Shown: positions 20,851-35,144 of the stretch, piece by piece | Position numbering within the stretch: the first letter of the stretch is position 1 | How the letters are laid out: the number at the start of each line of letters is the position of its first letter | Virus record (IMG/VR): IMGVR_UViG_2974513524_000001 | Span: 10,896 to 74,895 of that record | DNA: 64,000 bases | Direction: 5' to 3' (one strand) | From: a virus | Taxonomy: Duplodnaviria > Caudoviricetes | Notes under the pieces: generated by a model | Databases searched by the model: none | Told to the model about the DNA's origin: nothing | What the model saw: the letters and a program-made list of their open reading frames with translations, nothing else | Position numbers and translations under genes: made by a program

Positions 20851-21290
20851 TTCTTCTCCCCGAGACCCCAAAATTTCTTATAGCCCCCCTCGGCATACGC
20901 CTTGGCTTCGTCCTCAGTCTTGAAACTACGATACTCACCAGACTTCATGGCGTACTCAAAAGCGTCACGATCACCCAACTCCACAAGCTCATTGGCTTTC
21001 TTGGGTTGCACGATAGTTGGATACGCTACATAACGCCCATCAGTCTCACCATATGCCATACGATGTGTAGACACACTACCGTCGTCATTGGGTATTGCAG
21101 GATATTCATTTGGTTTCAGTACCCGCTTCTCAAAGTTCAGCTTGGTATTGAGATCAATAGTCGGACTTTGAATCCGACTACCTCCATCACGAATCTGATT
21201 GTCTTCCTCAGTACCCCACTTGGCCAACATACCAAGAGGCTTATCGTCATCTTCTACCAGCCCAGTAGGGCGCCATTGGTTAGGAGTCAT
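20847..21290 (-). CDS. Hypothetical protein
   Basis: 147 aa ORF coupled to both neighbours. Confidence 0.7.
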   Translation of the reverse strand: MTPNQWRPTGLVEDDDKPLGMLAKWGTEEDNQIRDGGSRIQSPTIDLNTKLNFEKRVLKPNEYPAIPNDDGSVSTHRMAYGETDGRYVAYPTIVQPKKANELVELGDRDAFEYAMKSGEYRSFKTEDEAKAYAEGGYKKFWGLGEKK

Positions 21291-22003
21291 ACCTGTTTCC
21301 CTGTGTCATTATCAAAAGTCAGAGAATGCTCGGCCACCCCCACTGCTGTGGTGCGCTTCTGACGTATCTGCTCTTGCTGCATCTCTACCAATGCCATAGT
21401 AGATTCGTGCAAAGCCTTGATAGCATCGTTGGCTTCAGTACTAACATCAAGTTCAACCTTAGCTTTCTCAGGCATCTTCAGGTGCGTGAGGATACTATTA
21501 GCCGCATCAGTACGAACCTTCTCACTCTGTGCACTGACCATCAGTTCAGCCTGCACATTGAGCGCCTTCTGATACATATCTTGGTTTAAGATCCAAGATG
21601 GGATCAGACTCTGCTCCATAATGGCAGACACAAGCTTGCCCTTGTTATAGGCAGTCACGTAGCTGGCAATATCCTTCGGGCTAACACCACGATTCACGAA
21701 GTCCTGATAACGATCAGGAAACGTAAGGGTATACGCCTCAATGTTGGTCTTACCCATAACCTTATACGTGCAGTACTTAACAGCATTCACATAGCTCTCA
21801 AGCTTGTGCTTACCATCGTTCATTACACTCGTGTAACCGATCAGGTTCTCACGAAAGGTTTCATGCAAGTTCACATCGCTGATCATGTTGATCACACCAG
21901 CAACAACCTCCTTCGACACAGACTTCTTCATCTTGTCAGGCAGAGCAGCCTTGAACTGTTCAACAGTCATCTGTTGTTCAGGGGTATACGGTACAAGGCT
22001 CAT
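21287..22003 (-). CDS. N4 gp69-like protein (putative terminase small subunit)
   Basis: YVNAVKYC, TFPDRY, AYNKGKLV and SEKVRTDAANSILTHL segments. Confidence 0.8.
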   Translation of the reverse strand: MSLVPYTPEQQMTVEQFKAALPDKMKKSVSKEVVAGVINMISDVNLHETFRENLIGYTSVMNDGKHKLESYVNAVKYCTYKVMGKTNIEAYTLTFPDRYQDFVNRGVSPKDIASYVTAYNKGKLVSAIMEQSLIPSWILNQDMYQKALNVQAELMVSAQSEKVRTDAANSILTHLKMPEKAKVELDVSTEANDAIKALHESTMALVEMQQEQIRQKRTTAVGVAEHSLTFDNDTGKQV

Positions 22004-22275
22004 ACAGCCTCCTTGAATTCAAATAGATTATGTACGTCGGCATCATCAATGTGCCAGACAGTGCAGCTTGCAGTACAGATCACCCAGTCTCCAGCGTACA
22101 CAGGCCACCACCTGCCGGTGATTACCTTCACCTCAAAGGGGCTTCGCTCAGTAGGCAGCTTGGCATTGCCAGCCTTCACCACAGCTTCAAACCATGGAGG
22201 AATGGGGCCTAGTGGTCCCTTGTACTGGAAGCCCGTCATAACCTGCCCAGTGCGCTTAGAAGTAAAGGCAGTCAT
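22000..22275 (-). CDS. Hypothetical protein
   Basis: 91 aa, coupled; GDWVI motif. Confidence 0.65.
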   Translation of the reverse strand: MTAFTSKRTGQVMTGFQYKGPLGPIPPWFEAVVKAGNAKLPTERSPFEVKVITGRWWPVYAGDWVICTASCTVWHIDDADVHNLFEFKEAV

Positions 22276-22454
22276 TTGTATGGCTTCTGAAAAGTAAGTA
22301 CATCGTCTTCAACAGTGAAGACAACACCAACAGGTACAAGCTCACCCTTGTAGGTCAGCTTACCTCGTTCATCGTAGTCAAAGTCTGTAGACCACATAGC
22401 CAGTATCTTGGTCACGGACTCAGCTGTGCCTGTGTATTCAACAGTAGTAGTCAT
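22272..22454 (-). CDS. Hypothetical protein
   Basis: 60 aa, coupled. Confidence 0.6.
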   Translation of the reverse strand: MTTTVEYTGTAESVTKILAMWSTDFDYDERGKLTYKGELVPVGVVFTVEDDVLTFQKPYK

Positions 22455-22672
22455 TTGACCACCACTAGCACAGACGTGCGCTTAATCCAGACAGTCTGGC
22501 CAGGTTCAACATATAGGTCACCAGCAGGCAGCTCTATACGAACATGACCAGTAGAACCTAGCTTAACGATGGACCAACCCTTACCAGCAGGGCCAAACCA
22601 TTCAGTTAGGCAGTCAGTCAGGGCACTGAAGTTATCAGCAGAATACTGAAGTGTAGAAGCTGCGTGAGTCAT
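22451..22672 (-). CDS. Hypothetical protein
   Basis: 73 aa, AGGT RBS. Confidence 0.6.
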   Translation of the reverse strand: MTHAASTLQYSADNFSALTDCLTEWFGPAGKGWSIVKLGSTGHVRIELPAGDLYVEPGQTVWIKRTSVLVVVK

Positions 22673-22900
22673 AGTTAACCTATAGGTAGAACATAGTTCG
22701 CCATAGTGTACAGGATTAAAAAAATTTTATGGGGAAATCGGGTTAGGGGAAATTTTATTGTTGGAAGACGAATGCAGTACTTAAGGTATGGGACCGTAAA
22801 ACCGAAACCGTCCCCCCCTACCTCATCGTGAATGAGTTTTCTCATTACCCTACCCCACCTACGGTGCTGTCATGACTACCACCTCATGGATGTACTACCT
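22673..22900. other. Probable genome-end / terminal-repeat junction
   Basis: Non-coding strand-switch region between gp69-side genes and the first early genes. Has A/T tracts, a C7 run and the first vRNAP hairpin promoter, which is where N4-like termini lie. Confidence 0.6.
22856..22874 (+). promoter_or_regulatory. vRNAP hairpin promoter (GTA triloop on template)
   Basis: CACC-TAC-GGTG-CTGT; template strand reads C-GTA-G, matching the N4 C-GDA-G hairpin consensus. Confidence 0.6.
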
Positions 22901-22975
22901 ATGAACTACTACGCTATTGCTGGTGCCTGTGCGCTAGCTACTGTGTGTGTACTGTTGTACCTCATCGTACTGTAA
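22901..22975 (+). CDS. 24-aa hydrophobic peptide MNYYAIAGACALATVCVLLYLIVL
   Basis: Hand-translated; shares the upstream sequence GTACTACCTATG with the gene at 23031; lies after a hairpin promoter. Confidence 0.5.
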   Translation: MNYYAIAGACALATVCVLLYLIVL

Positions 22976-22993
22976 GGCTACGCCTATGTAGTG
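22975..22993 (+). promoter_or_regulatory. vRNAP hairpin promoter
   Basis: AGGC-TAC-GCCT-ATGT. Confidence 0.7.
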
Positions 22994-23030
22994 GATACCA
23001 TGTGGTGTCTACTACTCTGGAGTACTACCT

Positions 23031-23321
23031 ATGTTTGCAATGATCCGTCAATTCTTCGCTATGTTCTCTTCCCTGTTCTCCGCAGGTGAGAAGCTGGCTA
23101 ACGGCCTCAACCATGCTGCATCCTTCGTCGAAGGTGAAGCTGCTGGCTTCAACGAACGTACCTCTCTGGCTCGCTCCCAAGAGCTGAAGAAACTCCGTTC
23201 CATGTACACCATCGAAGATCGTGAGCTTGCTGCTGCTGACGCTATCTCCGCTCGTGACCTCGACAAAACCCTGCGTGAAACTGCCGTAAAACAAGGTAAA
23301 GCCGCTACTGCTGCTGCCTAA
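23031..23321 (+). CDS. First early protein (hypothetical)
   Basis: 96 aa with GGAG RBS and an amphipathic N-terminus. Confidence 0.8.
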   Translation: MFAMIRQFFAMFSSLFSAGEKLANGLNHAASFVEGEAAGFNERTSLARSQELKKLRSMYTIEDRELAAADAISARDLDKTLRETAVKQGKAATAAA

Positions 23322-23328
23322 TCCACCT

Positions 23329-23350
23329 TAGGGGGACTTCGGTCCTCCTA
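23329..23350 (+). terminator. UUCG hairpin (weak terminator or processing site)
   Basis: TAGGGGGAC-TTCG-GTCCTCCTA with no clear U-tract. Confidence 0.45.
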
Positions 23351-23372
23351 TCCATAATCTAGGAGTATATCC

Positions 23373-23564
23373 ATGCGTACTATCATCGCTATCCTTGCTG
23401 GCATTGCTATCTTCATGTATGCCGATCTCGCTCTATCCTATGAGCTTATTGGCTATGGCCTCACACCTTACATCGCTGTACCTGCAATCATCGCTATCTT
23501 AGCCATGACTACCTTTGCGTTCTGCGCTGAACACAAACGCTTCATGTTCAACCTCTCCAACTAA
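23373..23564 (+). CDS. Small two-TM membrane protein
   Basis: 63 aa, AGGAG RBS, two hydrophobic segments. Confidence 0.75.
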   Translation: MRTIIAILAGIAIFMYADLALSYELIGYGLTPYIAVPAIIAILAMTTFAFCAEHKRFMFNLSN

Positions 23565-23597
23565 CCTCATTCCTTCGGGAGTGGGGTTATCCCTTTT
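23562..23597 (+). terminator. Rho-independent terminator
   Basis: TAACCTCATTCC-TTCG-GGAGTGGGGTTA followed by TCCCTTTT. Confidence 0.65.
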
Positions 23598-23815
23598 AAA
23601 AGCACACAACACGTCACACAACCAACACACATCGTAGACAGTAGGATTATCAAGGGGATAGTTATTCATAAGTCATCTCCTAATCACTCTAGTGATCCTA
23701 CATACGAGAGATAGGTAGGGATATTCGGGGCAAAGTAGTACTTGTGTGGTACATCCTCCCAATTCCGATATCCTACCTATGTACATCCTCAATTCCGGTA
23801 TTCACCGATAAACTA

Positions 23816-23834
23816 AAGCTACGCTTCTGTAATG
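23816..23834 (+). promoter_or_regulatory. vRNAP hairpin promoter
   Basis: AAGC-TAC-GCTT-CTGT. Confidence 0.7.
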
Positions 23835-23868
23835 GTATTTATATAGTCCATTCTGAGGTGTTATCACT

Positions 23869-24081
23869 ATGTCTTTGACTCTTATCCTCCTGCCTTGCAT
23901 TCATGCATCCGATACAACCATTGAGCTGCCGGTCTCTGATCGTGCTCAAGCTGTTGCAGTGGTTCAGGCATATGGTATTGACCGTCTGGATCATGCGGCT
24001 CTTGTGCGCTATCACAAGGACGTTACAGACGGTTCTCCATACGAAGAACTCATGACCCTTCACGATTTCATTACTGCTTAA
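23869..24081 (+). CDS. Hypothetical early protein
   Basis: 70 aa, GAGGTG RBS. Confidence 0.7.
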   Translation: MSLTLILLPCIHASDTTIELPVSDRAQAVAVVQAYGIDRLDHAALVRYHKDVTDGSPYEELMTLHDFITA

Positions 24082-24090
24082 GAGGTGTAT

Positions 24091-24372
24091 ATGTCCACTC
24101 TTCCAGATGTACCAAATAACAAGATCGTATCCATTCACGTGCAAACCACGCGTCTTACTGGCGCTGGTGTTGAGGTCATCTCTTATCGTGATAAGGGTGA
24201 TAAGGCTACTCACTGGTCTATCTATCTGCGTAAGGCAGATGGTTCGGTAGTGTGGGTAAGTGACATTCCAATTGGTACTGGTCACCGTGCCAATAACTAC
24301 TACAGTGAAGCCGTGCTTGCAGCTGCCAAGTTGTCTATGGAGCATAAGGCGTTCATAGAACAAATCCAATAA
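24091..24372 (+). CDS. Hypothetical early protein
   Basis: GAGGTG RBS; ATHWSIYLR segment. Confidence 0.7.
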   Translation: MSTLPDVPNNKIVSIHVQTTRLTGAGVEVISYRDKGDKATHWSIYLRKADGSVVWVSDIPIGTGHRANNYYSEAVLAAAKLSMEHKAFIEQIQ

Positions 24373-24377
24373 GTCTT

Positions 24378-24596
24378 ATGGCTAAGACTAAATGGTATTT
24401 CATTGACGACAATGGGGATGTTCAAGTTAGTTATGACTTGAATTCCTTATGCCATACAGGCTACAGACAAGCTATGCATGGAGCTACTTACGATCCACAT
24501 TGGCGTCGTAAGGACATAGACAGAATATCTTCTGTTTATATAGAAAATACTGAAGTCCCTCAACTAATCTTAATGGCTCATTTAATAGGTGTATAA
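24378..24596 (+). CDS. Small early protein, PxxPhixMxxLPhiG family member 1
   Basis: Ends EVPQLILMAHLIGV. Confidence 0.7.
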   Translation: MAKTKWYFIDDNGDVQVSYDLNSLCHTGYRQAMHGATYDPHWRRKDIDRISSVYIENTEVPQLILMAHLIGV

Positions 24597-24598
24597 CC

Positions 24599-25036
24599 AT
24601 GGCTGCTCGCGTAAATAACTATCACGTTGTAATCACCACTGCTATTGCTACCTTTGCAATGTCACGCCCTATTCAGGATAGTCCTGATATGGTCAATTGG
24701 GTGGCTAAGCAGATTTCTGAAACCAACAATGCTGATGTAAGCATTTACCTTAATGGTGTGTGCAAGGCTCAGCATAAAGTATTTGCAGATGGTCATGTAC
24801 CAGCTGTATGGACTCACACTCCACTGCCTGTTGGTATGGCCGCTGCTGCACTTCAAACCAAGTTTGAAGAACGCGCTGCTGTTGTACTGGGTGATGCTGA
24901 CTCAGGCACCAACTTCGCTTTGTGGAAGTCAGGAACTCATAGCAATGCGGACAATCGTTACATTGATCCAACTGTGCGTGCTGCTTGGATGATGTATGTC
25001 GATCAAGCCATCGAACACTTCGTCGCTACTAAATAA
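24599..25036 (+). CDS. Hypothetical protein
   Basis: 145 aa; YIDPTVRAAW segment. Confidence 0.7.
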   Translation: MAARVNNYHVVITTAIATFAMSRPIQDSPDMVNWVAKQISETNNADVSIYLNGVCKAQHKVFADGHVPAVWTHTPLPVGMAAAALQTKFEERAAVVLGDADSGTNFALWKSGTHSNADNRYIDPTVRAAWMMYVDQAIEHFVATK

Positions 25037-25047
25037 GGAGATACACC

Positions 25048-25368
25048 ATGGTTGCTACTCAATTGCCTAAAGGCTGCAAGTTCGTTCGTATGGAAGATGC
25101 CGGTCGCTTTGCGCTGCCTCCTGAAGCCATCGTGGTACATGCTGGTCTCATTGATGAATTGGTGAAAGGTGATTATGTAAAGATCACCGTTGACTTCGGT
25201 GAAGCCAGTGAGAAGTTCTGGTGTGACCTGATGGGTTATGACCCTGAAACAGGGCTCATGGAACTGCGTGTAGCCAATGATTTGGTGTACGCCAAGTTCC
25301 ATGGGCTTGATGATGGTCACATCATCATAGTTGAAAAACAATACCTCTGTGCTGCTATCAAGGAGTAA
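25048..25368 (+). CDS. Hypothetical protein
   Basis: 106 aa, AAGGAG RBS; GDYVKI...EKFW...VANDL pattern. Confidence 0.75.
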   Translation: MVATQLPKGCKFVRMEDAGRFALPPEAIVVHAGLIDELVKGDYVKITVDFGEASEKFWCDLMGYDPETGLMELRVANDLVYAKFHGLDDGHIIIVEKQYLCAAIKE

Positions 25369-25371
25369 ACC

Positions 25372-25665
25372 ATGATCCTGTCTGCCCTGATGTATGTCTG
25401 CATTCAAACTGCGGATGGCAACCGTGAGTGTGATGTTCGTGCTTCGCGTCGAGTTGACGTAGTAAGTGAAGACAGTTGCACTAAGCAACTCAACACTGCT
25501 GTAGTTGAGTTAGTTAAACATACACTCAAAGAAGAAGGAGGTACTGTAATTACCAAGACGTATGTTAAATGCATGCGGATTGGAGACTATACAGCCTCAC
25601 TCCGTGAGGTTCCTGTAACGCTGGAGAGCTTAGGCTACTCCACAGTCGTACTATCCTTCTTCTGA
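25372..25665 (+). CDS. Hypothetical protein (possibly exported)
   Basis: 97 aa, AAGGAG RBS, Cys-containing. Confidence 0.7.
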   Translation: MILSALMYVCIQTADGNRECDVRASRRVDVVSEDSCTKQLNTAVVELVKHTLKEEGGTVITKTYVKCMRIGDYTASLREVPVTLESLGYSTVVLSFF

Positions 25666-25675
25666 GGTACTTAAT

Positions 25676-25876
25676 ATGGATGCCGGTAAAATACTTTTGT
25701 TCGGGGTACTTATGTGCCTCGGACTGGTAGCCTCTACCATCGAAGTTCAAAAAGTGGATGCAGGTGGCAATAAACCAATTGAGTTGGTGTATGGCCCTGA
25801 TATCCACGGTGTAGTTTGTTATCGCGATGCGCGTAACTCCTACGGTGATCCACTTTCCTGCGTAAAAGCGTACTAA
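25676..25876 (+). CDS. Small signal-anchored protein
   Basis: 66 aa; N-terminal TM and GVVCY...LSCVK. Confidence 0.7.
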   Translation: MDAGKILLFGVLMCLGLVASTIEVQKVDAGGNKPIELVYGPDIHGVVCYRDARNSYGDPLSCVKAY

Positions 25877-25877
25877 G

Positions 25878-26057
25878 ATGGTTACTGCAATTTGCGTAGG
25901 ACTACTACTCTGGCTGATATTCATCGGCTGGGTAGTAGTCACTGGTGATGATCGGCCAGAGGATGTTCCTTCAATCTTCCTGTTGTTGGTTATCAGCGTC
26001 TCATTCTGTGTTGTTGTTCAACACTTCGGTTCAATGCTTATTGGAGCAATAGCATGA
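25878..26057 (+). CDS. Small two-TM membrane protein (59 aa)
   Basis: Hand-translated MVTAICVGLLLWLIFIGW...; fills the gap and overlaps the next start (ATGA). Confidence 0.6.
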   Translation: MVTAICVGLLLWLIFIGWVVVTGDDRPEDVPSIFLLLVISVSFCVVVQHFGSMLIGAIA

Positions 26058-26434
26058 TCTTCGTATTCGGTAGTAACTTGGCTGGTCGCCATGGTGCAGG
26101 TGCAGCAGCGTATGCATATAACCATGAGGGTGCTGTATATGGTCAAGGCATTGGCCACTTTGGTAATAGCTATGCTATTCCAACCAAAGACCACAACATC
26201 CAAACCATGGAGCTGGTGGACATTCAACAATGTGTTGAGTTGTTCATTCAGTATGCTGAGTTGAACCCTGACCTTAAGTTCAAGGTAACTCGCATTGGCT
26301 GTGGTCTGGCTGGCTACAAGGACGAGGACATTGCACCAATGTTCTCTAAAGCACCATCCAACTGCTGGTTCGATCAAGTATGGTTTACGCACTTGCCTGA
26401 ACCTAACAGCCGTAACTACTGGGGCACCATGTAA
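26054..26434 (+). CDS. A1S_2505-like phage protein (macro-domain-like fold)
   Basis: IFVFGSNLAGRHGAGAA, SYAIPTK and FKVTRIGCGLAG motifs. Confidence 0.8.
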   Translation: MIFVFGSNLAGRHGAGAAAYAYNHEGAVYGQGIGHFGNSYAIPTKDHNIQTMELVDIQQCVELFIQYAELNPDLKFKVTRIGCGLAGYKDEDIAPMFSKAPSNCWFDQVWFTHLPEPNSRNYWGTM

Positions 26435-26637
26435 TGGATAAAGCCCACATAGTTATGTATGCCTTAGCGGTGTACGGTCTGTTAACCATGATCCTAAGTT
26501 TTCTTGTATGGCTGGGTGAGTGCAATAACTTCGAAGAAGCCAAACCAGATGTATGCATGAGCAACTTCTGGAAATGGGGATTTGTGATCACTTTGATCAT
26601 CATTGTGATCGCATTCCTCATTGGCCCACCGGAGTAA
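26434..26637 (+). CDS. Small two-TM membrane protein
   Basis: 67 aa with two hydrophobic helices. Confidence 0.65.
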   Translation: MDKAHIVMYALAVYGLLTMILSFLVWLGECNNFEEAKPDVCMSNFWKWGFVITLIIIVIAFLIGPPE

Positions 26638-26639
26638 AT

Positions 26640-26921
26640 ATGCAGCTACCTCAGTTGTACAGCAAGCTCACGTACGTACAGAGACGTATGGTGCGTGAGC
26701 AGTACATGGAGTTGCAGCATAACCTGTGCTACTGGTGTCGTGGCCACTTGTGGGAACCACCACCAGAGCGCATCTTGAACACGCCAATTAACTTGGCATT
26801 GTTCCCGCCCAACTTCCTCAAACATCCAATTCATTTACAACATAACCACAAGACTGACGAGACAGAAGGTGCAGTTCATGCACGCTGTAACGCAGTGATG
26901 TGGCAATACCATGGGAGATAA
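26640..26921 (+). CDS. Zn-finger / endonuclease VII-like small protein
   Basis: CYWC ... HLQHNH ... GAVHARCN; GGAG RBS. Confidence 0.65.
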   Translation: MQLPQLYSKLTYVQRRMVREQYMELQHNLCYWCRGHLWEPPPERILNTPINLALFPPNFLKHPIHLQHNHKTDETEGAVHARCNAVMWQYHGR

Positions 26922-26924
26922 ACC

Positions 26925-27338
26925 ATGATTCATTGCAACTGTGCTACCTGCCGATTGAATGGCTATCAAGGGCGTTCATACATTGAGTACAGTGGGCAGA
27001 ATTACTGTACTGCCCATCCTCAATACATCAGCATCAAGCGTTACAAGCAGGCTCTTGATCTGCTTGGTGCACCTAAACCAGACACTGACTGGTATTCGAA
27101 GGTACATGTACCTGTGGTACAGACGCCTAAACCCAAACCTAAACCAGTGTTACACACCTACGTGTTGAGCTTTCGTGATGCTCGTGGAGTAGAGCAAGAC
27201 TGGTTCATTAAGTCTGACTGTGACGAAGATGCTTGTAATCAAGCACAAGCTTTCATGAAGTGCCTACCCTTCTGTAACTCACCTTTCACTCTCATTCGTG
27301 AGACTGAAGTACGGCTACTTCAAGTACTCAACCGATAA
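26925..27338 (+). CDS. Hypothetical protein
   Basis: 137 aa with a Cys-rich N-terminus. Confidence 0.65.
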   Translation: MIHCNCATCRLNGYQGRSYIEYSGQNYCTAHPQYISIKRYKQALDLLGAPKPDTDWYSKVHVPVVQTPKPKPKPVLHTYVLSFRDARGVEQDWFIKSDCDEDACNQAQAFMKCLPFCNSPFTLIRETEVRLLQVLNR

Positions 27339-27432
27339 TATAAAGTACTCAAAATGAGTATTTTTGACTAAGAATCCGATAGGGCAACCGAGGTAGTTTC
27401 GGTTGTCGGAGATACTCTAAATGGGGTGTGTT

Positions 27433-27705
27433 ATGACCGTAATGAAGAACGACTTTGCTTGTGCTGAGTTGAACAACCGTAAGATTGAGTTGATCGAACT
27501 GCTGCAACGTCATATGGAAGCACGTCGTCGCTTCCGTAAAGTGTCTGTGGCAACCATGGGCGAAGAACTGGGTGTCGGTGAACGTACTGCTGCCAAGGTA
27601 CTGGCTGGCCACTTTCTCGACTTGTCGATGGATATCCTGTTCTGCATGAGTGTTCGTGCAGGACTCACTGTAACCGTAAGCACTCGTGCAATCGTAAGGA
27701 GCTAA
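27433..27705 (+). CDS. XRE-type HTH protein
   Basis: SVATMGEELGVGERTAAKVLAG helix-turn-helix followed by LSMDIL...AGLTV. Confidence 0.65.
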   Translation: MTVMKNDFACAELNNRKIELIELLQRHMEARRRFRKVSVATMGEELGVGERTAAKVLAGHFLDLSMDILFCMSVRAGLTVTVSTRAIVRS

Positions 27706-27708
27706 ACC

Positions 27709-27936
27709 ATGCTTGTTCAATATGTACTGGCGTTCGTCGCAGTGATCCAGATGTTCCTGATCTTGGCACTGTTCAAGCGTGTAGAGCTTCATCGTAAGCT
27801 TCATATGCGTGGTGCTGAAGCTGGTGTAAAACTGGCCATGGCCTGTATGGCTATGGGTGCCGATGTAATTAAACTCAAGAAAAAGGTTGGTATCGATGGC
27901 GATCAACAACAAAGCACTACAGATCATAAAGAATAA
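27709..27936 (+). CDS. Small membrane protein
   Basis: 75 aa, AAGGAG RBS, N-terminal TM. Confidence 0.65.
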   Translation: MLVQYVLAFVAVIQMFLILALFKRVELHRKLHMRGAEAGVKLAMACMAMGADVIKLKKKVGIDGDQQQSTTDHKE

Positions 27937-28156
27937 CACCCACCTGCCTCCAAGCATTCTTCAGAATGTGCTGCAAGCACAGGGACAGATCGTGCCATTG
28001 GGCCAGATCTCCGAGATCATTGAAGCCATCAAAGAGCACGATCAAGTGCACACAGTGACCTCACCGAAAGGTCTTAAGGTGAACATCAGTGACATGGATA
28101 CCATCCTCCAATACGCATTGGCTGGTGGTATGCCTCGAGAACTGTTGCGTAAGTGA
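27896..28156 (+). CDS. Hypothetical protein
   Basis: ORF with AAGGT RBS. Confidence 0.6.
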   Translation: MAINNKALQIIKNNTHLPPSILQNVLQAQGQIVPLGQISEIIEAIKEHDQVHTVTSPKGLKVNISDMDTILQYALAGGMPRELLRK

Positions 28157-28163
28157 TATCGCT

Positions 28164-28183
28164 GGGGCTACGCCCCTGTAAAG
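28164..28183 (+). promoter_or_regulatory. vRNAP hairpin promoter
   Basis: GGGGC-TAC-GCCCC-TGTA, upstream of the gp2-like gene. Confidence 0.7.
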
Positions 28184-28224
28184 GCAATCATGCCATCAAA
28201 TATTTATCCGTAAGGAGAGCCATC

Positions 28225-28530
28225 ATGGCCGTAGCAAAGAAAGGCGCCACTCGTACCACTTCGACTCAAGCCGCTCAGGGCAACCAGTGGGAAAAAGCTT
28301 CTGCGTTCCTCAACATCTCGCTGCCGACTGCCGGTGGCGACAACGTGCGTGTTGACTCGATCAAACTGAAAGAGTCCAACGTCGTGCACGCACAGATCAT
28401 CAGCAAGTTGTCCGACCCAGCGTTGTCTGCTGAAGAACGCGCTGAAAAGCTGAAAGCTCTCACCGGCCTGCTGATCATCGACTTCCAGGTCGTCCGCAGC
28501 GACGAAGAAAAAGAGCTGGTCGATTTCTGA
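28225..28530 (+). CDS. Putative N4 gp2/Drc-like ssDNA-binding RNAP II cofactor
   Basis: WEKASAFLNISLPT resembles N4 gp2 KAQYWLNI...SLPT; aromatic C-terminal residue; own promoter and terminator. Confidence 0.55.
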   Translation: MAVAKKGATRTTSTQAAQGNQWEKASAFLNISLPTAGGDNVRVDSIKLKESNVVHAQIISKLSDPALSAEERAEKLKALTGLLIIDFQVVRSDEEKELVDF

Positions 28531-28536
28531 TTCCCC

Positions 28537-28572
28537 ATGGTCACTACCTTCGGGTGGTGGCCATCCTTTTTT
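28537..28572 (+). terminator. Rho-independent terminator
   Basis: ATGGTCACTACC-TTCG-GGTGGTGGCCAT followed by CCTTTTTT. Confidence 0.75.
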
Positions 28573-28584
28573 CAAGGGCACACC

Positions 28585-29061
28585 ATGAAAAAGAAGTTCC
28601 TCGGCCTCAGTGATGATGGCTTCCGGGTGTACACCATGTGGACGCCGGGTGAGAAAGGTGACTGCGGCATCGTTATGACGATTGGTTATCGAGACGATGA
28701 GTTCATGGTCTATGAATCTGAGCCTTGGGCAAACCAACAAGAACAAGAGATAGAGCGTATTGCTCTGTCCGCTGCTGATGAAATGCGCAATCTTCAAACC
28801 ATGATGATGAGTAGCGTCACATTTGGTTATGGAGCACGTGGTTTCGGTAAAAGAAGTATTGGTCAGCTAGATCAGATTACAAAGGGTAGCTTTGCTGATC
28901 TTGAAGCCAGGGCTAAGCGTTCACATAGCAAATCGCTCATGTTTATTGATGAGTATAAAGCAAGGAACCCCAAAATTACGGTTACTCCTGATCAACAGGG
29001 GCAACCAAAGCGTAAACCTCAACCTAATCGTGGCCCAAGAGGCCGTAAGGACTGGAAATGA
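28585..29061 (+). CDS. Hypothetical protein
   Basis: ORF with a basic C-terminal tail (NRGPRGRKDWK). Confidence 0.7.
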   Translation: MKKKFLGLSDDGFRVYTMWTPGEKGDCGIVMTIGYRDDEFMVYESEPWANQQEQEIERIALSAADEMRNLQTMMMSSVTFGYGARGFGKRSIGQLDQITKGSFADLEARAKRSHSKSLMFIDEYKARNPKITVTPDQQGQPKRKPQPNRGPRGRKDWK

Positions 29062-29351
29062 ACATTACTCCTAATGAAATGCTGGGTTTGCTGATTGTTG
29101 TTGTGGTTCTCTTGATGCTTCTGCTGCTTGGTGCAGCAAAGCGTCGTAAGCACACAAAGATCTATCCAATGTGTGTCGTATTCTGGTGTGCACACAGTAA
29201 TGAGCAATTCATTACACCTGTGCGCAATCTTGGTGCAGCTCAGACACTGATTAACAAAATTAATCTGTTGTCTGTAGTAGAGCCACATATTGATGTGGCA
29301 GGCACTGCAACCCATCGCCTTGAGCGTGGTATCTGGAAGATGATCGAATGA
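29058..29351 (+). CDS. Membrane-anchored hypothetical protein
   Basis: 97 aa with N-terminal TM, coupled. Confidence 0.65.
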   Translation: MNITPNEMLGLLIVVVVLLMLLLLGAAKRRKHTKIYPMCVVFWCAHSNEQFITPVRNLGAAQTLINKINLLSVVEPHIDVAGTATHRLERGIWKMIE

Positions 29352-29605
29352 GATACCAACTGTTCTTTAAGTGTGGCGATGAAATAGAGGTTCTCCAGTC
29401 GGATAACCTCGACGACTCAGAAACACAGAAGAATGCTGGTCTTAAGTGGTTTTCAGGTGGTGATAAAGAGCTTTATATCCATGACAGTCGTTTCGACTTC
29501 TGGCAACAAGCTCGTGTAAATCACCAAGACAAGATCAGTACACTCGGTGTAGTACGTACTGAATACATTCCTCCATTGGTGCGTATGCGCCACCTCATTG
29601 GGTGA
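29348..29605 (+). CDS. PxxPhixMxxLPhiG family member 2
   Basis: Ends IPPLVRMRHLIG. Confidence 0.7.
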   Translation: MRYQLFFKCGDEIEVLQSDNLDDSETQKNAGLKWFSGGDKELYIHDSRFDFWQQARVNHQDKISTLGVVRTEYIPPLVRMRHLIG

Positions 29606-29609
29606 AACC

Positions 29610-29891
29610 ATGGCCGTAGTATTCGTAGTAAAGAATGATGCTGTCGTGCATCGTGAAGAGATAGATCTTGCTAATCGCAAGAAGCTTCTCGGAGCTTTAT
29701 ACCGTAAATACGGTACTAACAGGCTGTTTATACGTGGTGTAAACAGCTCAGGAGATAGAACTAAGTGGGCTCGTGTCGAGTTTGTATGGAACTCAGGCTG
29801 CACTGAGATCAAACATGCCCACATGTACTTCTTACCTGTTAAGGAGTTACCACCAGTGCTTCAGATGATGCAGCTGGTAGGTGCAGCATGA
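29610..29891 (+). CDS. PxxPhixMxxLPhiG family member 3
   Basis: Ends LPPVLQMMQLVGAA. Confidence 0.7.
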   Translation: MAVVFVVKNDAVVHREEIDLANRKKLLGALYRKYGTNRLFIRGVNSSGDRTKWARVEFVWNSGCTEIKHAHMYFLPVKELPPVLQMMQLVGAA

Positions 29892-30148
29892 TGGAAATAA
29901 ATCCGGTTACGAAGAAGTTTGGCTTCAAACTTGGGTACTACTCATTCATCAACGGTGAATGGAAGTACCTGTCTGCGTATGTGAGTTCTGTGGAAGTTCA
30001 CATGGCTTACAAAGCCAACAATGGCGTCTGGTGGTACACCAGTGCTATGAGCAAACCATGGCGTGAAATGATCGTACCCGGTCGTTGGCGCCCACTGGAT
30101 GGAGAACCTAAACCGTTGCAGATGCTGCGACTTGTAGGTGCATTGTGA
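29888..30148 (+). CDS. PxxPhixMxxLPhiG family member 4
   Basis: Ends EPKPLQMLRLVGAL. Confidence 0.7.
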   Translation: MMEINPVTKKFGFKLGYYSFINGEWKYLSAYVSSVEVHMAYKANNGVWWYTSAMSKPWREMIVPGRWRPLDGEPKPLQMLRLVGAL

Positions 30149-30402
30149 GTACTGAAGAATGTACTGACTATTATCTGGATGAAAATGAAATTCCAATAAG
30201 CAAGTACAGTCATGCGTACTCTGAAGACACTTCATTAAAAGATGGTGCTTGGTGTGAAAATACCACTAGAACTATCTATTCCGTGGATAACAAGAATAAA
30301 ACATGGATAAAGGTGTTCTATGAGCAGAAACAATTTGTTGTTAAACGAGTAGAAGAACCTCCAAAGACACTTCAAATGGCTTTATTAATAGGTGCTATAT
30401 GA
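30145..30402 (+). CDS. PxxPhixMxxLPhiG family member 5
   Basis: Ends PPKTLQMALLIGAI. Confidence 0.7.
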   Translation: MSTEECTDYYLDENEIPISKYSHAYSEDTSLKDGAWCENTTRTIYSVDNKNKTWIKVFYEQKQFVVKRVEEPPKTLQMALLIGAI

Positions 30403-30833
30403 AACTCATGGTTGGAAACATGATGGATGTGTTCCCGTTAGTGGACCACTTCATCGTATGTGTCGGTACGAATCTCAAGCGTACTACTGGTGAGTTGATC
30501 ATGCCTGACGGCATGTATAAGCAGCTCGCGGACAAGCATCCTGAACTACCCAAAACCATTGGTGCTTGGGTACGTGAGCAGGATCTTGATGGTGGCATCT
30601 TCGGTCTGAAGTGCACCAGTAAGGTGGGCCTGTTCCAGAACACCATTGTGCTTGCTGACAGGCCAGCACTAGGGGTTATCTCCATGTCTGCCAAGATGCT
30701 AAAAGCCAAGGCTGAGATGCATCCTGACAAGACCTTTGCCCTTGAAGCACCGAATGCCAAGGAACCTTGGTTCTTGATTGAGGGCATAATGCAAACACTA
30801 CCTGACAACGTTCAGGTATGGAGGCCGGAGTGA
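30399..30833 (+). CDS. Divergent macro-domain-like protein
   Basis: MKLMVGNMMD...IVCVGTN...GELIMPDGMYKQLADKHPEL resembles the phage macro-domain N-terminus (G.aVMG.G.A...aD..P.L) but is degenerate. Confidence 0.55.
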   Translation: MKLMVGNMMDVFPLVDHFIVCVGTNLKRTTGELIMPDGMYKQLADKHPELPKTIGAWVREQDLDGGIFGLKCTSKVGLFQNTIVLADRPALGVISMSAKMLKAKAEMHPDKTFALEAPNAKEPWFLIEGIMQTLPDNVQVWRPE

Positions 30834-31132
30834 GTCTGTACGTTGTAGAAAACAATGTCACACGGAAAGCCACAACCAATGGTTTTGGCTCTAGTGCAGT
30901 TATTCCATGCAAAGACTGGCGTAACTGTAAACCTAACCGTTTTATATACGCAGAAGCTAAAGGTCTCTGGTACATCATGAGTGCAGGTGGCTTCTGGAAT
31001 GTTTTACCAAAGAAGCCAGATGTAATCTCTATGGCTGAACTTGTTGGTGCCGTAGGCAAAGTTAGTCTTAAGGAAATCAAAGATGAAATATCGTCTGATT
31101 CGTTTTTCGAGAACCAACGAAGTCGTACTTGA
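30830..31132 (+). CDS. PxxPhixMxxLPhiG family member 6 (C-terminally extended)
   Basis: Contains KPDVISMAELVGAV followed by a ~25-aa extension. Confidence 0.7.
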   Translation: MSLYVVENNVTRKATTNGFGSSAVIPCKDWRNCKPNRFIYAEAKGLWYIMSAGGFWNVLPKKPDVISMAELVGAVGKVSLKEIKDEISSDSFFENQRSRT

Positions 31133-31343
31133 TGTTAAGTGCCAAGCTCCAAACCAGTTTGGTGATAACGAGTTGTTCGCTCAGACTACAGGAGGTACTG
31201 CTGTACTCTACGACTACTCAGTACAGCGTTGGTATGAACTAAACCCAAGTGAGTCTAAACGATTCACAACTTGGTGGGAGTATCCCAAGGATAAGGAGCT
31301 TCCCGGTTACGTCAAGATGATCCAGTTGGTTGGACAAATATGA
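31083..31343 (+). CDS. PxxPhixMxxLPhiG family member 7
   Basis: Ends LPGYVKMIQLVGQI. Confidence 0.7.
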   Translation: MKYRLIRFSRTNEVVLDVKCQAPNQFGDNELFAQTTGGTAVLYDYSVQRWYELNPSESKRFTTWWEYPKDKELPGYVKMIQLVGQI

Positions 31344-31600
31344 GGACAACCAACTTCTACTTCAATGCTGACGGTTCCCTAGATCATACAGATGACGCAG
31401 AAACTGCGATATTTAGATGTAGGGCATGGGTTAAATCTGACAAAGATAGGAGTGTGCTTCAGTACAGACACGAATCTAAGATTCTGTACATCTACCGTAA
31501 TGAAGAAACAAAGAATCCAAACATGATGATTTGGCGTCCGCCGACACCATCAGAAATACCCGATCACATCAAGATGATGAAACTGATAGGAGCAATCTAA
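31340..31600 (+). CDS. PxxPhixMxxLPhiG family member 8
   Basis: Ends IPDHIKMMKLIGAI. Confidence 0.7.
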   Translation: MRTTNFYFNADGSLDHTDDAETAIFRCRAWVKSDKDRSVLQYRHESKILYIYRNEETKNPNMMIWRPPTPSEIPDHIKMMKLIGAI

Positions 31601-32523
31601 TGCAACTAATGCGTACCTATGACATGCAGCTGGCGAATGAATATCGCTTCGCTCGTGCCCACATCGACAAGTATATGCGTGACTACGTTAGGAATGACGT
31701 TGAAGTGCAGCCTCTGCTTGCTGAGGGGCTTGAACTGCTGAGTGCGTACGTATGGGCTGAATACGATTACACCTCTAAGAACCTGCGTGTAGCTCAGCTA
31801 CGCAACATGGATCTTGAAGAACTGGTGTTCGAAATTGTTGTAGCCAGTGCTTACTGTCAGTATGAAGAAATGCTTTCAAGCTTCTGTGCCAAGTTGGCCG
31901 GTACTCTGAAGTTCTCTGACAAGGTAGACAGCATTCAAACCATCAGTGAGATGGTTGCTGTGCTGTGGGATACAGGTCTTTATGAGCTGATCAAGAATGA
32001 CAAGTTCGATAGCTGGCATATTCAGTCAAACATCGAGCTGAGTCATGAACTTGAGCAGTACATTGTGAACTGTTCCTACCTCCCGCCTATGGTTCATAAG
32101 CCTGAACCACTCAACAGCAATCGTGACACTCCGTACCATACCATCGGTATGGATAGTGTCATTCTGAACAAAGGTCACCACGAGGGTGACGTATGTTTGG
32201 ATGTTCTTGACCGCATGAACATGACTGCACTATCACTCAATATTGAGTTCCTGTGCAGAGTTGAAGAAGAACCTAATGCCGATATGTCGTCGGCTGATAA
32301 GCAAGCCAACTGGCTTAGCATGAAGGCTCAGAGCCACGAGCATTACAAGCTCATGGTTTCACAGGGTAATCGCTTCTGGCTTGGCCACAAGTGTGACCGT
32401 CGTGGTCGTGGTTATGCTCAGGGTTATCACATCTCCACTCAAGGGAGCCCATACAAGAAAGCCATGATCGACTTCGCTGATAAGGAAGTTGCTACAGGCG
32501 TACCTCAGGAGTACATGCTTTGA
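31600..32523 (+). CDS. RNA polymerase II subunit 1 (N4 gp15-like)
   Basis: YLPPMVHKP, HHEGDVCLD and HKCDRRGRGYAQGYHISTQG (DxxGR) motifs. Confidence 0.92.
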   Translation: MQLMRTYDMQLANEYRFARAHIDKYMRDYVRNDVEVQPLLAEGLELLSAYVWAEYDYTSKNLRVAQLRNMDLEELVFEIVVASAYCQYEEMLSSFCAKLAGTLKFSDKVDSIQTISEMVAVLWDTGLYELIKNDKFDSWHIQSNIELSHELEQYIVNCSYLPPMVHKPEPLNSNRDTPYHTIGMDSVILNKGHHEGDVCLDVLDRMNMTALSLNIEFLCRVEEEPNADMSSADKQANWLSMKAQSHEHYKLMVSQGNRFWLGHKCDRRGRGYAQGYHISTQGSPYKKAMIDFADKEVATGVPQEYML

Positions 32524-33089
32524 ATATAAAACCAGTAGTTAGCATTAGCCTCAGTGCACCAAAAGTTATTGATCATGACTTCTTTGTGTTCACTAGTCAG
32601 GTGCGTTACAAAGAATCAAATCAGTATTGGCTTGTTAAATGCATTTTCACCAGCTTCGAAGGTGCTAGGCGCCTAAAGGAATTCCATTCTATGTACAAAG
32701 CTAAAGCTTTGTACGAAGCCTATGAATGGCTGAAAGAGCAGAAAGGGCTGGACGATAAGATTCAACGTGAGTTGAAGAAAAAGAAAGACCATCGCAGTTC
32801 TAGTTACATGACCAAGATGCGTCTGCGTCAAACTGTTATCAAAAGCACGATGGGCGACAAACGTTATCGTCTTACTTACAGAGATGTAAGTGATGAGAAT
32901 GCTCTGTACTTTGGGTACGGTGATACACCACAAGAAGCCTATATGGCTTTGGTTGACGCAATGTCTGCCGTATACAACAAACCTCCACGTCGTCGTAATG
33001 AACATGGCGTTGTAATCGGCCTGACTCCTACCAATGACACAACAAAATACCGCCAACACTGGTGGCAATTCTGGAGACCAAAACTGTGA
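32520..33089 (+). CDS. Hypothetical protein
   Basis: 189 aa basic protein between the RNAP II subunits, ending WWQFWRPKL. Confidence 0.65.
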   Translation: MNIKPVVSISLSAPKVIDHDFFVFTSQVRYKESNQYWLVKCIFTSFEGARRLKEFHSMYKAKALYEAYEWLKEQKGLDDKIQRELKKKKDHRSSSYMTKMRLRQTVIKSTMGDKRYRLTYRDVSDENALYFGYGDTPQEAYMALVDAMSAVYNKPPRRRNEHGVVIGLTPTNDTTKYRQHWWQFWRPKL

Positions 33090-33460
33090 GTTCATCACAA
33101 GAGTTTCGCTTAATAGTTGCTGGTGGTCGTGACTTCACGGACGTTGATCGTATCGTCCAAGAAGTCTATGGCTTGATGGTCAATGAGTTGAAAGACTTTG
33201 AGATCGTCATTGTACAAGGCGAAGCCAGAGGTGCTGACAAGTCTGCAAAGATTGCAGCACAGCGTCTCAAGTTAAAATGTGAATCCTTCCCTGCTGAGTG
33301 GGACTTGCATGGCAAGGCTGCTGGTCCGATACGTAACAGAGCAATGGCAGAAGTTGCTGATGGTTTACTGGCTTTTTGGGACGGTGAATCCAAGGGCACT
33401 GCCAACATGATCCAAGTTATGCGTACGCATGGCAAAAACGTACGTGTTCGTAGTTATTAA
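33086..33460 (+). CDS. DUF2493 / YspA-SLOG family protein
   Basis: RLIVAGGRDF, GEARGAD, AGPIRNRAM and SKGTANMI motifs. Confidence 0.85.
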   Translation: MSSSQEFRLIVAGGRDFTDVDRIVQEVYGLMVNELKDFEIVIVQGEARGADKSAKIAAQRLKLKCESFPAEWDLHGKAAGPIRNRAMAEVADGLLAFWDGESKGTANMIQVMRTHGKNVRVRSY

Positions 33461-33474
33461 TTGAGAGAGTCCAT

Positions 33475-34725
33475 ATGAAAGCTTACTCCGCGTTCGAAAT
33501 GATCTGCATTGATATCGCCAACCAAGGTTGGGACGATAAGAAGCTGTTTGAAGAACGCATTCAGTGGACTCTTGATAACTTCCGTCGTCTGACGGTTATC
33601 GATACTCCAAAGAAGGAGCGTCCTCTGTATGTTAAGGCCGTAATGGCCTTGTTCGACTGCTGCCGTGGCATTGCCATCGGTCACATGGTTGGCTTGGATG
33701 CAACCTGCTCAGGCATGTCCATCATGTCTGTGCTGACCAAGTGCTACAACGGTTGCTATGCAACCAACCTGATTGACCCCAACGTACGTAACGATGCCTA
33801 CACCATGGTAACTGACCACGCGTCAGAGAACCTTGGTGGTGGTCTGATCGTAACCCGTCAGGATGCCAAAGATGCAACCATGAAAGGTCTGTATGGCTCT
33901 CAGGCTGAACCAAAGAAAATCTTCGGTGAAGATACACCTGAGCTGGCTGCGTTCTACGTTGGCTTGACCAAGACTGCACCGGGTGCTGTAGAGCTGCTGG
34001 GTGACCTGCGTCATGCATGGCAAGCAGGTGCATTGTTCCACGCTTGGACCTTGCCTGACTGCTACCGTGCACACGTCAAGGTCATGGTTATGCAGGAAGC
34101 TCGTATTGAAGTAGACGAGCTGGATCACTCTACTTTCACTCACATCTTCTATGTGAACGAAGGTACTCAGGGTGACCTGAAACTGATTGCAAACGTGACC
34201 CACAGCTTCGATGCATACCTGCTTCGCTGCTTGGTTCGCCGCTGCAACTACAACGAGGAGCGTATCACTAAGTCCGATGCAATCCTCGTTGCAGAAGCTC
34301 AGGCACGTCGTGCTGGCAAGTCGTACGAGCTGGTCATGGAAGAAGCTGAAACCATCGAAGATAACCTGATTGAACGTTGGTTCAGCTCAGGTGTTCCAGA
34401 TGCTCGGCTGTTGGACTACCTGACCAAGGAAGGTGTTAAGTTCATGTCTGATCTGCACATTAAGCAGATGATCCGCATCGCTAACGAGATGCTCTCCTAC
34501 CCGTCATTCCCAGTGGTAACAGTCCATGACGAATTCAAGTGTCACCCAAACAACAGCACGCAAATGCGTAAACACTACGTCTCGATCCTTGCAGATCTTG
34601 CTCGCGGTAGCGCATTGGAAGATGTGTATGAACAGATCACCGGTGATGTTCCGACTTATGCCGGTGGTATGGATGGCGATGAACTCGCTGAACTGATCCT
34701 GGAGTCTAACTATGCAATTTCGTAA
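33475..34725 (+). CDS. RNA polymerase II subunit 2 (N4 gp16-like)
   Basis: Motif A GLDATCSG, motif B RQDAKDATMKGLYGS, motif C VHDEF. Confidence 0.93.
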   Translation: MKAYSAFEMICIDIANQGWDDKKLFEERIQWTLDNFRRLTVIDTPKKERPLYVKAVMALFDCCRGIAIGHMVGLDATCSGMSIMSVLTKCYNGCYATNLIDPNVRNDAYTMVTDHASENLGGGLIVTRQDAKDATMKGLYGSQAEPKKIFGEDTPELAAFYVGLTKTAPGAVELLGDLRHAWQAGALFHAWTLPDCYRAHVKVMVMQEARIEVDELDHSTFTHIFYVNEGTQGDLKLIANVTHSFDAYLLRCLVRRCNYNEERITKSDAILVAEAQARRAGKSYELVMEEAETIEDNLIERWFSSGVPDARLLDYLTKEGVKFMSDLHIKQMIRIANEMLSYPSFPVVTVHDEFKCHPNNSTQMRKHYVSILADLARGSALEDVYEQITGDVPTYAGGMDGDELAELILESNYAIS

Positions 34726-34828
34726 CAAGCTTGCCTTAGCAATCTACTACGCCTACAACAAAAACATGTGGGAGCACGTACGAGTAGTACGTGAACCATC
34801 TTGGTTTGATGTAAGGCGAATTAGTTGA
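34712..34828 (+). CDS. Small hypothetical protein (38 aa)
   Basis: Hand-translated MQFRNKLALAIYY...; GGAG RBS inside the RNAP2 3' end. Confidence 0.4.
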   Translation: MQFRNKLALAIYYAYNKNMWEHVRVVREPSWFDVRRIS

Positions 34829-34848
34829 GCTAGCGTCACTCCGTGACG

Positions 34849-34891
34849 ATCCTTGATCCCTCCATTAGGAGGGGTTGAGGATAATTTTTTT
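34849..34891 (+). terminator. Terminator after the RNAP II operon
   Basis: ATCCTTGATCCCTCC-ATTA-GGAGGGGTTGAGGAT followed by AATTTTTTT. Confidence 0.6.
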
Positions 34892-34906
34892 CTAGTAGAG
34901 GTAGTT

Positions 34907-35116
34907 ATGCCGCAAGCCTATGAAATGCTTAGCAACAGTAAGATTGAGCCGGAAGCAACCATCGGAAAGACAGTCTACAAGTGCGCTCGGCACGATTACG
35001 GCTGTGCCGGTGATGACACCCGTACCACTGGTGTGGAACACATCAGTTTGTCTTTGAAACCGGACGGTGATTATCCGTTCTTTACACACCGTGTTAGCGA
35101 ACTAAAAAAGCTGTAA
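34907..35116 (+). CDS. Hypothetical protein
   Basis: GAGGT RBS; DYGCAGDDTR...GDYPFFT. Confidence 0.7.
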   Translation: MPQAYEMLSNSKIEPEATIGKTVYKCARHDYGCAGDDTRTTGVEHISLSLKPDGDYPFFTHRVSELKKL

Positions 35117-35144
35117 CACAGACAGTCAGTCAGGAGAGTCCCAA

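Follow-up and report, generated by a model that had tools for sequence, protein, structure and literature searches.

Eight small genes and their shared C-terminal motif

The DNA analysed here is a 64,000-nucleotide (nt) window (positions 10,896-74,895) within a 74,895-bp genome, IMG/VR virus record IMGVR_UViG_2974513524_000001, and some counts were run genome-wide. The window holds eight small open reading frames (ORFs) whose proteins share the C-terminal motif P-x-x-[LIV]-x-M-x-x-L-[IV]-G, and seven of these form an array that leads into the genes for the RNA polymerase II of the phage. Judged by sequence identity, the window is that of an N4-like phage of fluorescent pseudomonads: the DNA at 29000-33000 is 86% identical to Pseudomonas phage 98PfluR60PP (Schitoviridae, Littlefixvirus), one family protein of the window is 100% identical to a phage Littlefix protein in BFVD, and for the small subunit of RNA polymerase II (31600-32523) the identity is 96.7% to 98PfluR60PP, 61.5% to phCDa (Shizishanvirus) and 55% to the LIT1/PEV2 group.

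All eight genes lie on the plus strand; the endings given here run up to the stop codon, and the ratio of nonsynonymous to synonymous substitution (dN/dS) was taken against 98PfluR60PP. Member 1 (24378-24596; 72 amino acids (aa), ending in PQLILMAHLIGV; profile E 5.9e-13; dN/dS 0.29, with 63% identity to the 98PfluR60PP ortholog) stands apart from the array, 4.7 kb upstream, and belongs to the transcription unit before it. The array opens with member 2 (29348-29605; 85 aa, ending in PPLVRMRHLIG; profile E 1.7e-10; dN/dS 0.08) and continues with member 3 (29610-29891), which has 93 aa from the ATG at 29610, with an alternative TTG start at 29598, and ends in PPVLQMMQLVGAA (profile E 4.9e-14; dN/dS 0.13). 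Member 4 (29888-30148; 86 aa, ending in PKPLQMLRLVGAL; dN/dS 0.13) is one of two members whose structure was modelled with AlphaFold2, and member 5 (30145-30402; 85 aa from a GTG start, ending in PKTLQMALLIGAI; profile E 2.6e-17) is one of two whose bodies are replaced in a close relative. A gene outside the family, at 30399-30833, then interrupts the series. Beyond it lie member 6 (30830-31132; 100 aa; dN/dS 0.27), in which PDVISMAELVG is followed by a 27-residue extension, member 7 (31083-31343; 86 aa, ending in PGYVKMIQLVGQI), which is the other modelled protein, and member 8 (31340-31600; 86 aa, ending in PDHIKMMKLIGAI), the body of which is replaced in 98PfluR60PP. Genes overlap by 4 nt at 29348, 29888, 30145, 30399, 30830 and 31340 and by 1 nt at 31600, where the polymerase gene begins, and the extension of member 6 shares 50 nt with member 7, read in a different frame. 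These overlaps confirm the tightly packed array ending at RNA polymerase II subunit 1 of a preliminary description made from the same DNA. The interrupting gene had been called macro-like there; its 144-aa product matches phrog_335 ('phosphatase', E 4.1e-12), with no match in Pfam and none by sequence to a solved structure below E 0.5.

The regular expression P..[LIVM].M..L[IV]G, applied to six-frame translations of the window and of the full genome, returned exactly eight matches in the window and the same eight genome-wide, all on the plus strand, with Pro codons at 24558, 29570, 29850, 30107, 30361, 31016, 31302 and 31559. These are the coordinates of the eight ORFs first described, and when the genome was shuffled 100 times at the mononucleotide level, 0.01 matches were obtained on average and never more than 1. 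In seven of the eight ORFs the stop codon follows the motif Gly by 0-2 residues, the exception being the ORF at 30830. A hidden Markov model of the C-termini, as the preliminary description had proposed, was iterated over 2,159 ORFs of at least 40 aa from the present genome and 11 related loci, including 98PfluR60PP (L001) and an IMG/VR contig (L004). It matched 55 plus-strand ORFs at an independent E-value below 1, 53 of them no more than 12 residues from the C-terminus, and none of the 1,067 minus-strand ORFs of this set. The family-bearing contigs examined are N4-like Pseudomonas phage contigs of about 73 kb.

In principle such a motif could also be kept in place by a signal in the nucleic acid, for instance a promoter hairpin, a ribosome-binding site or the coupling of translation. 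The [IV]-G codons read TAGGTG, TAGGAG or TTGGA and stand 7-9 nt ahead of the next start, so that they double as its ribosome-binding site, as had been noticed before, and most neighbouring genes overlap by 4 nt. This overlap accounts for only part of the conservation of the Gly. The third positions of the codons for P, the hydrophobic residues (that at position 4 among them), L9 and G11 carry 0.09-1.05 bits of information, against 2.0 at first and second positions, and the motif L is written variously as TTA, CTC, CTG, CTT and TTG, which indicates that the motif is conserved as protein and not as a DNA repeat, in line with the preliminary description. Relatives of the phCDa type lack the final Gly, their tails reading VP[ED]x[VI][KR][ML]Ax[ML][LVM], yet P, the hydrophobic residues and M or L stay. 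Furthermore, dN/dS is 0.08-0.29 for the eight members, compared to 0.04-0.44 for 21 neighbouring genes with an ortholog, values that mark them as coding genes under constraint rather than decaying ORFs. A nucleic-acid origin of the motif is hardly credible on these data, and it is refuted for every position except the final [IV]-G.

One family and its predicted fold

With the motif cut off, the member bodies show no pairwise BLASTP similarity (best E 0.24); their aromatic content is 10-16% and their isoelectric points (pI) range from 4.9 to 9.8. The preliminary description had called the bodies barely alignable, which holds in this sense, but they are not unrelated: an alignment of 32 members has an invariant Trp about 24 residues before the Pro and an N-terminal hairpin with a [DN]-G turn, and the order of predicted structural elements is also common to them. 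A larger alignment comprises 66 non-identical members of at most 125 aa from the present genome, eight IMG/VR contigs and three database proteins, and leaves out four members with C-terminal extensions, member 6 of the window included. In it the Pro is present in 66 of 66 sequences and the Trp in 64, at a spacing of 13-38 residues (median 22), and the family-wide tail reads [VLI]-P-[ED]-x-[VIL]-[RK]-[ML]-A-x-[LM]-[VLM]. In the somewhat wider form [VLI]-P-[EDK]-x-[VIL]-[RKQL]-[ML]-x-x-[LM]-[VLMI], placed 1-3 residues before the stop, the motif is carried by all eight ORFs of the window, in member 6 ahead of the 27-residue extension. Member 8 has L in the aligned Trp column and a W 9 residues before the P, possibly a misalignment. 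All eight members match the 32-member profile at E 1.9e-20 to 3.7e-09, a partly circular result as they helped to build it, and minus-strand ORFs all score above E 0.8. Family members measure 65-125 aa, and in N-terminally extended ones (113-123 aa) the C-terminal 80 residues cover the whole profile. On alignment and predicted structure, then, the eight ORFs are one family and not unrelated bodies that share a tag, and the expanded paralog family first proposed, set in the presumed early operon that ends in the RNA polymerase II genes, is borne out. That it has no named family also stands: in Pfam-A and PHROG, at a cut-off of E ≤ 0.01, none of the 32 members and none of the eight proteins found a match, the sub-threshold rows being DUF629 (E 0.16), phrog_37606 (E 0.043) and phrog_18142 (E 0.077).

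The position of the motif at the extreme C-terminus of most members, together with the hydrophobic ends found here (GAI, GAL, GAA), might point to a degradation or export tag by which a host protease or secretion route would set the timing or localisation of these proteins, and such a tag had been considered in the preliminary description. Protease degrons of the ssrA type end in LAA-COOH. The last 1-3 residues of the 66 aligned members vary freely, those of phCDa-type members reading MLE, MLR, LMQ, MRD or LID, and the conserved residues lie inside the helix and not at the carboxyl end. The extension that carries member 6 on for 27 residues is kept in 98PfluR60PP (L001 7793-8101) and, with 22 residues, in L004 (9149-9466). 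Since the motif stands 22-27 residues from the end in member 6 of three genomes, the tail does not need a free C-terminus. Nothing resembling a signal peptide was seen. We therefore regard an ssrA-type degron as rejected and any degradation or export tag as very unlikely. The extension itself ends in KEIKDEISSDSFFENQRSRT here and in KEIRNDLPVDTFFD in L004, an acidic D-x-FF end being common to the three genomes.

The fold was modelled for two of the eight members, 4 and 7, which are mutually dissimilar. For member 7 AlphaFold2 gave a predicted local distance difference test (pLDDT) score of 86.4 and a predicted template modelling score (pTM) of 0.78, with strands at residues 3-8, 14-20, 39-44, 49-53 and 64-66 and helices at 29-36 and 75-82, and for member 4 a pLDDT of 86.8 and a pTM of 0.72, with strands at 15-21, 24-29, 47-51, 58-63 and 66-69 and helices at 34-43 and 75-83. 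Both models have the element order strand-strand-helix-strand-strand-strand-helix, and in both the final helix of 8-9 residues is the motif. An independent BFVD model of the same member 7 sequence superposes on ours with a template modelling score (TM) of 0.93 and a root-mean-square deviation of 1.6 Å over 86 columns, which makes the placement of the motif helix reproducible. The blocks that hold this helix have a pLDDT of 87-95 in both models, and within chains of pTM 0.72-0.78 this makes it look like the last element of the fold and not like a detachable tag. The motif is thus most likely the last helix of a common fold, so far as the models can tell.

Other BFVD matches of the two models include two or three Littlefix paralogs (TM 0.50-0.62) and phCDa proteins (TM 0.34-0.73). 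Searches among solved structures gave no name to the fold. Foldseek found no PDB match for member 7 at E ≤ 0.001, VIA-align against 48,161 chains gave best Z scores of 4.6 and 3.6 for the two models and no nameable fold, and among PDB sequences the best match to the profile had an E of 0.13. In the ESM Atlas the best feature score was 0.78, with a structure TM of up to 0.56 to unnamed clusters and no lead.

Exchange of bodies, probable early expression and the constant helix

Comparison with close relatives gives a second view of the tail. DNA similarity between member 8 and its counterpart in 98PfluR60PP ends at 31343, at the gene start, and returns at 31550, 9 nt before the Pro codon; the final 40 nt of the gene and the start of the polymerase gene are identical, and the two proteins are 38-40% identical. 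At member 5 a contig of a close relative (run X1, one of four compared as contigs) joins 30141 to 30355 through 210 other letters, with the tail and both flanks kept. Loose ends at 31580 in runs X1 and X3 read SEVPEYLRMR in our own translation, which is the 98PfluR60PP-type allele of member 8. When all pairs of the 11 loci were compared gene by gene, the tail was kept and the body lost in 21 cases and the body kept and the tail lost in 3; in a further 78 both stayed, in 402 neither did, and 56 were partial. Five of the 21 (four distinct genes) also kept both flanks. This asymmetry is in part due to stronger conservation of the tail. On these sequence comparisons, close relatives swap whole bodies and keep the tail and flanks, which is a new observation. 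The variable body and constant helix of the preliminary description hold as an evolutionary pattern, in the form of these swaps, but not in the sense of a detachable tag, given the confidence of the helix within a compact chain.

The members of the window are 38-92% identical to their 98PfluR60PP orthologs, compared to the 96.7% of the adjacent polymerase subunit. The order of the array is syntenic with that in L004, where the polymerase is 80% identical, members are 26-55% identical to those of the window, often over part of the protein, and extra copies are present. Divergence of this kind with synteny preserved suggests that the duplications are old. A replacement of a whole gene adjoins member 1: at 23862-24377 the window carries a gene outside the family (24085-24372, phrog_28861), and the corresponding stretch of 98PfluR60PP (L001 795-1544) carries an extra family member (1319-1543) that ends in PKAIIMAHLIGM.

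The array appears to be transcribed together with the polymerase genes that it precedes. Consensus scans alone located three terminator-like hairpins on the plus strand: one at 23562-23589, one at 28537-28564 (12-bp stem, 4-nt TTCG loop and T-run) that is the probable left boundary of the array unit, and one at 34849-34882 (15-bp stem, 4-nt loop and T-run) that is its probable right boundary. The hairpins bracket two units. The first holds member 1 and ends after a Drc-like gene, which the strong hairpin at 28537-28564 directly follows; the second holds the array of seven members with the phrog_335 gene in its midst, and the genes for both subunits of RNA polymerase II. The small subunit gene (31600-32523, plus strand; N4 gp15-like), which lies directly downstream of the array, was assigned by tblastn; that search matched 467 phage records, and 'N4 gp15-like protein', 'RNA polymerase small subunit' and 'hypothetical protein' are among the matches listed. 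The large subunit gene (33475-34725, plus strand) is the last of its unit and is 99% identical to the 'DNA-directed RNA polymerase' of 98PfluR60PP. The Drc-like gene (28153-28530, plus strand) belongs to phrog_6271, which PHROGs labels 'toxin', and is an ortholog of the Drc type of LUZ7, a protein that binds single-strand DNA and acts as a cofactor of RNA polymerase II. Its identity to the 98PfluR60PP gene is 97%, at a dN/dS of 0.10.

A report on LUZ7 (PMC9163698) gives RNA polymerase II and Drc as early products transcribed by the injected virion polymerase. As the family shares its units with these genes, it is probably early as well, read by such an injected polymerase within the first minutes after infection begins. 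At 21000-35500 sigma-70-like promoter matches are depleted (6 against 21.9 expected from shuffles) and terminator-like hairpins enriched (22 against 10.0), which fits transcription by polymerases of the phage rather than by that of the host.

The explanation that we favour overall, at a probability of about 0.6, is that these are old, diverged paralogs in which the motif is a core helix and which act as early binders with variable surfaces. The eight ORFs would be diverged copies of one lineage-specific small protein domain. Its motif helix, with a Pro cap, usually an acidic residue next, hydrophobic residues at positions 3, 4, 6, 7, 9 and 10 and a basic one at 5, would form the conserved hydrophobic core together with the near-invariant Trp of the fourth strand, and the rest would be free to vary. 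In the present lineage of phages, part of what holds the final Gly would be the use of its codon as ribosome-binding site by the following gene, to which translation is coupled. The family may have evolved by duplication, loss and replacement of whole bodies between conserved tail-coding segments, and the variable surface of each copy may bind a target of its own, either a host factor or a host-defence protein, which would make the array a repertoire for host takeover or counter-defence. Such a repertoire of early host-factor binders is our best guess for the function.

Several points weigh against this explanation. Burial of the motif helix is deduced from confidence scores and superposition, and AlphaFold tends to dock amphipathic helices onto sheets regardless. 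By our own helical-wheel count the helix is hydrophobic over about 220 degrees, more than packing against one sheet needs, so that part of it may be an interface. Foldseek E-values among the paralog models are mostly above 0.001, with borderline TM values of about 0.5. The protein ends 11-13 residues past the Pro in 65 of 66 aligned members, and a terminal tag would look alike; the boundaries of replacement fall at the start of the motif, which a modular design of payload plus handle would predict. With respect to function, no homolog of known function and no fused form was found.

Some of these points can be read in favour of a docking handle, a constant helix that would plug all members into one partner (a host protease or chaperone, the host or phage RNA polymerase, or a phage ATPase) with the bodies as adaptors. 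No part of the family is better conserved than the helix, whose end lies 1-3 residues short of the stop codon in 65 of 66 aligned members; it is hydrophobic on more than one face by our reading of the column counts, the bodies are swapped at the motif start with the tail kept, and surface charge varies across the pI range given above. However, an independent tag would not require the co-conservation of a body Trp with the motif (64 of 66), and our two models and the BFVD model all place the helix with confidence inside a compact chain. In addition, the motif of member 6 is internal in three genomes, residues past the helix are not conserved in phCDa-type members, and no partner is known. We consider such a handle doubtful.

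Alternatively, helix and Trp might form a shared interface through which members assemble into self or mixed dimers or larger assemblies. The wide hydrophobic arc and the presumed co-expression of the members from one operon are consistent with this, and a common interface would explain a constant element across old paralogs; the expectation is a generic one, as small phage proteins commonly dimerise, and we hold assembly through this element to be distinctly unlikely. Because the helix is hydrophobic on more than one face and the protein ends so regularly after it, the core helix may also, as a tentative possibility, serve as an interface that all members have in common, be it towards one partner or among themselves.

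A further reading of the swaps is that of a cassette library, in which the tail would serve in the protein as a handle that docks all members onto one partner or onto one another, and in the DNA as a recombination anchor for the exchange of whole target-binding bodies within the clade, so that a repertoire of adaptors against host factors or defence systems could be re-assorted rapidly. We give it little credence. A parallel exists in T4-type hyperplastic loci, where divergent small early or internal proteins have a short shared targeting sequence and undergo cassette-like replacement. The likeness lies in the many divergent small proteins per locus, the constant segment and the cassette-like replacement. 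The T4 segment, in contrast, is an N-terminal capsid-targeting peptide of late proteins, and the one described here is a C-terminal helix of early proteins that is apparently part of the fold.

About 3% of this phage genome belongs to one family with no catalogue name and no solved-fold match. Proteins facing host targets that vary, be they defence systems or targets of takeover, would be expected to combine early expression, purifying selection and exchange of bodies. The family is thus a defined candidate set open to testing, and the phage group that carries it serves as a model of N4-type transcription and has relatives among therapeutic Pseudomonas phages. If the tail is a common handle, it would amount to a compact natural repertoire of modular binders; if it is a core helix only, the family would be a new but ordinary lineage-specific ORFan expansion.

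Relatives, distribution and neighbouring genes

Hypothetical proteins of Littlefixvirus and Shizishanvirus belong to the same family, namely gp65, gp66, gp81-83, gp85 and gp86 of 98PfluR60PP, together with unannotated ORFs, and gp27-29, gp39, gp40 and gp42-48 of phCDa. They occupy the same place upstream of the RNA polymerase II small subunit and have the same predicted fold, and they are annotated as 'hypothetical protein'. N4-like phages of P. aeruginosa have candidate relatives, proteins of similar size beside or between the RNA polymerase II genes (LIT1 gp18 and gp20-22, their phi176 homologs and LUZ7 gp21), some with motif-like tails such as EEIPKELQALLTIYGL at the C-terminus and SVPKEVRLMKTLT. 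Two phi176 proteins are among the BFVD matches of both models (TM 0.42-0.59, probability 0.84-0.97). Comparison of the 66-member profile by hhalign gave weak matches to LIT1 gp22 (E 0.002, probability 14%) and LUZ7 gp21 (E 0.0047, probability 7%) and nothing for LIT1 gp21. Against N4 gp8, reportedly a clamp loader inhibitor, the same alignment gave E 0.68 over one aligned column.

The top Foldseek hit of member 7 in the PDB is Dmd of T4/RB69, the antitoxin of RnlA and LsoA (5hy3, 5i8j), likewise a small early protein with an antiparallel sheet and a helix. The match is non-significant (E 0.45-0.83, TM 0.32-0.47 over 46-48 columns, VIA Z 2.7) and covers residues 1-54 only, without the motif helix, and there is no sequence similarity between Dmd and member 7. 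The tail was also compared with the peptide that binds the beta clamp, which has the consensus QL[SD]LF or QLxLxL. This candidate was rejected, as no fixed residue precedes L9 (E, Q, R, M, H, A and Y all occur) and position 11 is Gly or variable, not Leu or Phe.

The family is rare. A HMMER search with the 66-member profile against 1.84 billion representative proteins returned 44 clusters at E ≤ 0.001. Two of these are long proteins that cover profile positions 26-57 only and were taken as spurious; the other 42 are 71-120 aa long, and all 41 that were fetched end in the motif, which the 42nd (P0002) also has. A word-indexed search of 5.8 billion proteins gave 26 matches, none with a name other than 'hypothetical protein', and the contigs that carry them reach 78 kb. 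A word search with member 7 as the query gave three homologs only. No fused or longer form appeared among 7,092 candidates, which is weak evidence. Of the six IMG/VR loci found with a degenerate DNA pattern for VPE[IV]VRMA, a common variant of the tail, four are unrelated internal matches; the other two do carry the family, one being phCDa as recorded in IMG/VR and the other a contig of 72.9 kb that holds 11 members. By the strict motif there are eight copies here and nine in 98PfluR60PP; by the family profile each of the 11 loci counted has 8-13, phCDa reaching 13, against at least 12 by visual inspection. In the literature on Littlefix, phCDa, N4-like early paralogs and the ORFans of LIT1 and LUZ7 no description of the family was found, and a mention in the papers on early LIT1/LUZ7 ORFans is possible.

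Two neighbouring genes deserve mention. Between the polymerase subunit genes, at 33062-33460 on the plus strand, lies a gene for a 132-aa protein with the segments VAGGRDFTD and VQGEARGADK, by eye a candidate for a nucleotide-binding protein of the Rossmann type (SLOG-like); in the LIT1 group it is possible family members that lie between the RNA polymerase II subunit genes. The ORF at 44332-44826 on the plus strand (164 aa, ending in KMNKMRKLIGGL), between a MoxR-like ATPase gene (43268-44335) and the gene for a 409-aa protein (44823-46052), was considered as a ninth member and rejected: it lacks the Pro, its motif-profile E is 3.2 and it is absent from the full-length profile matches. Its tail corresponds to the last six residues of the motif, and the LIG end may be owed to the ribosome-binding site of the gene that follows and overlaps it.

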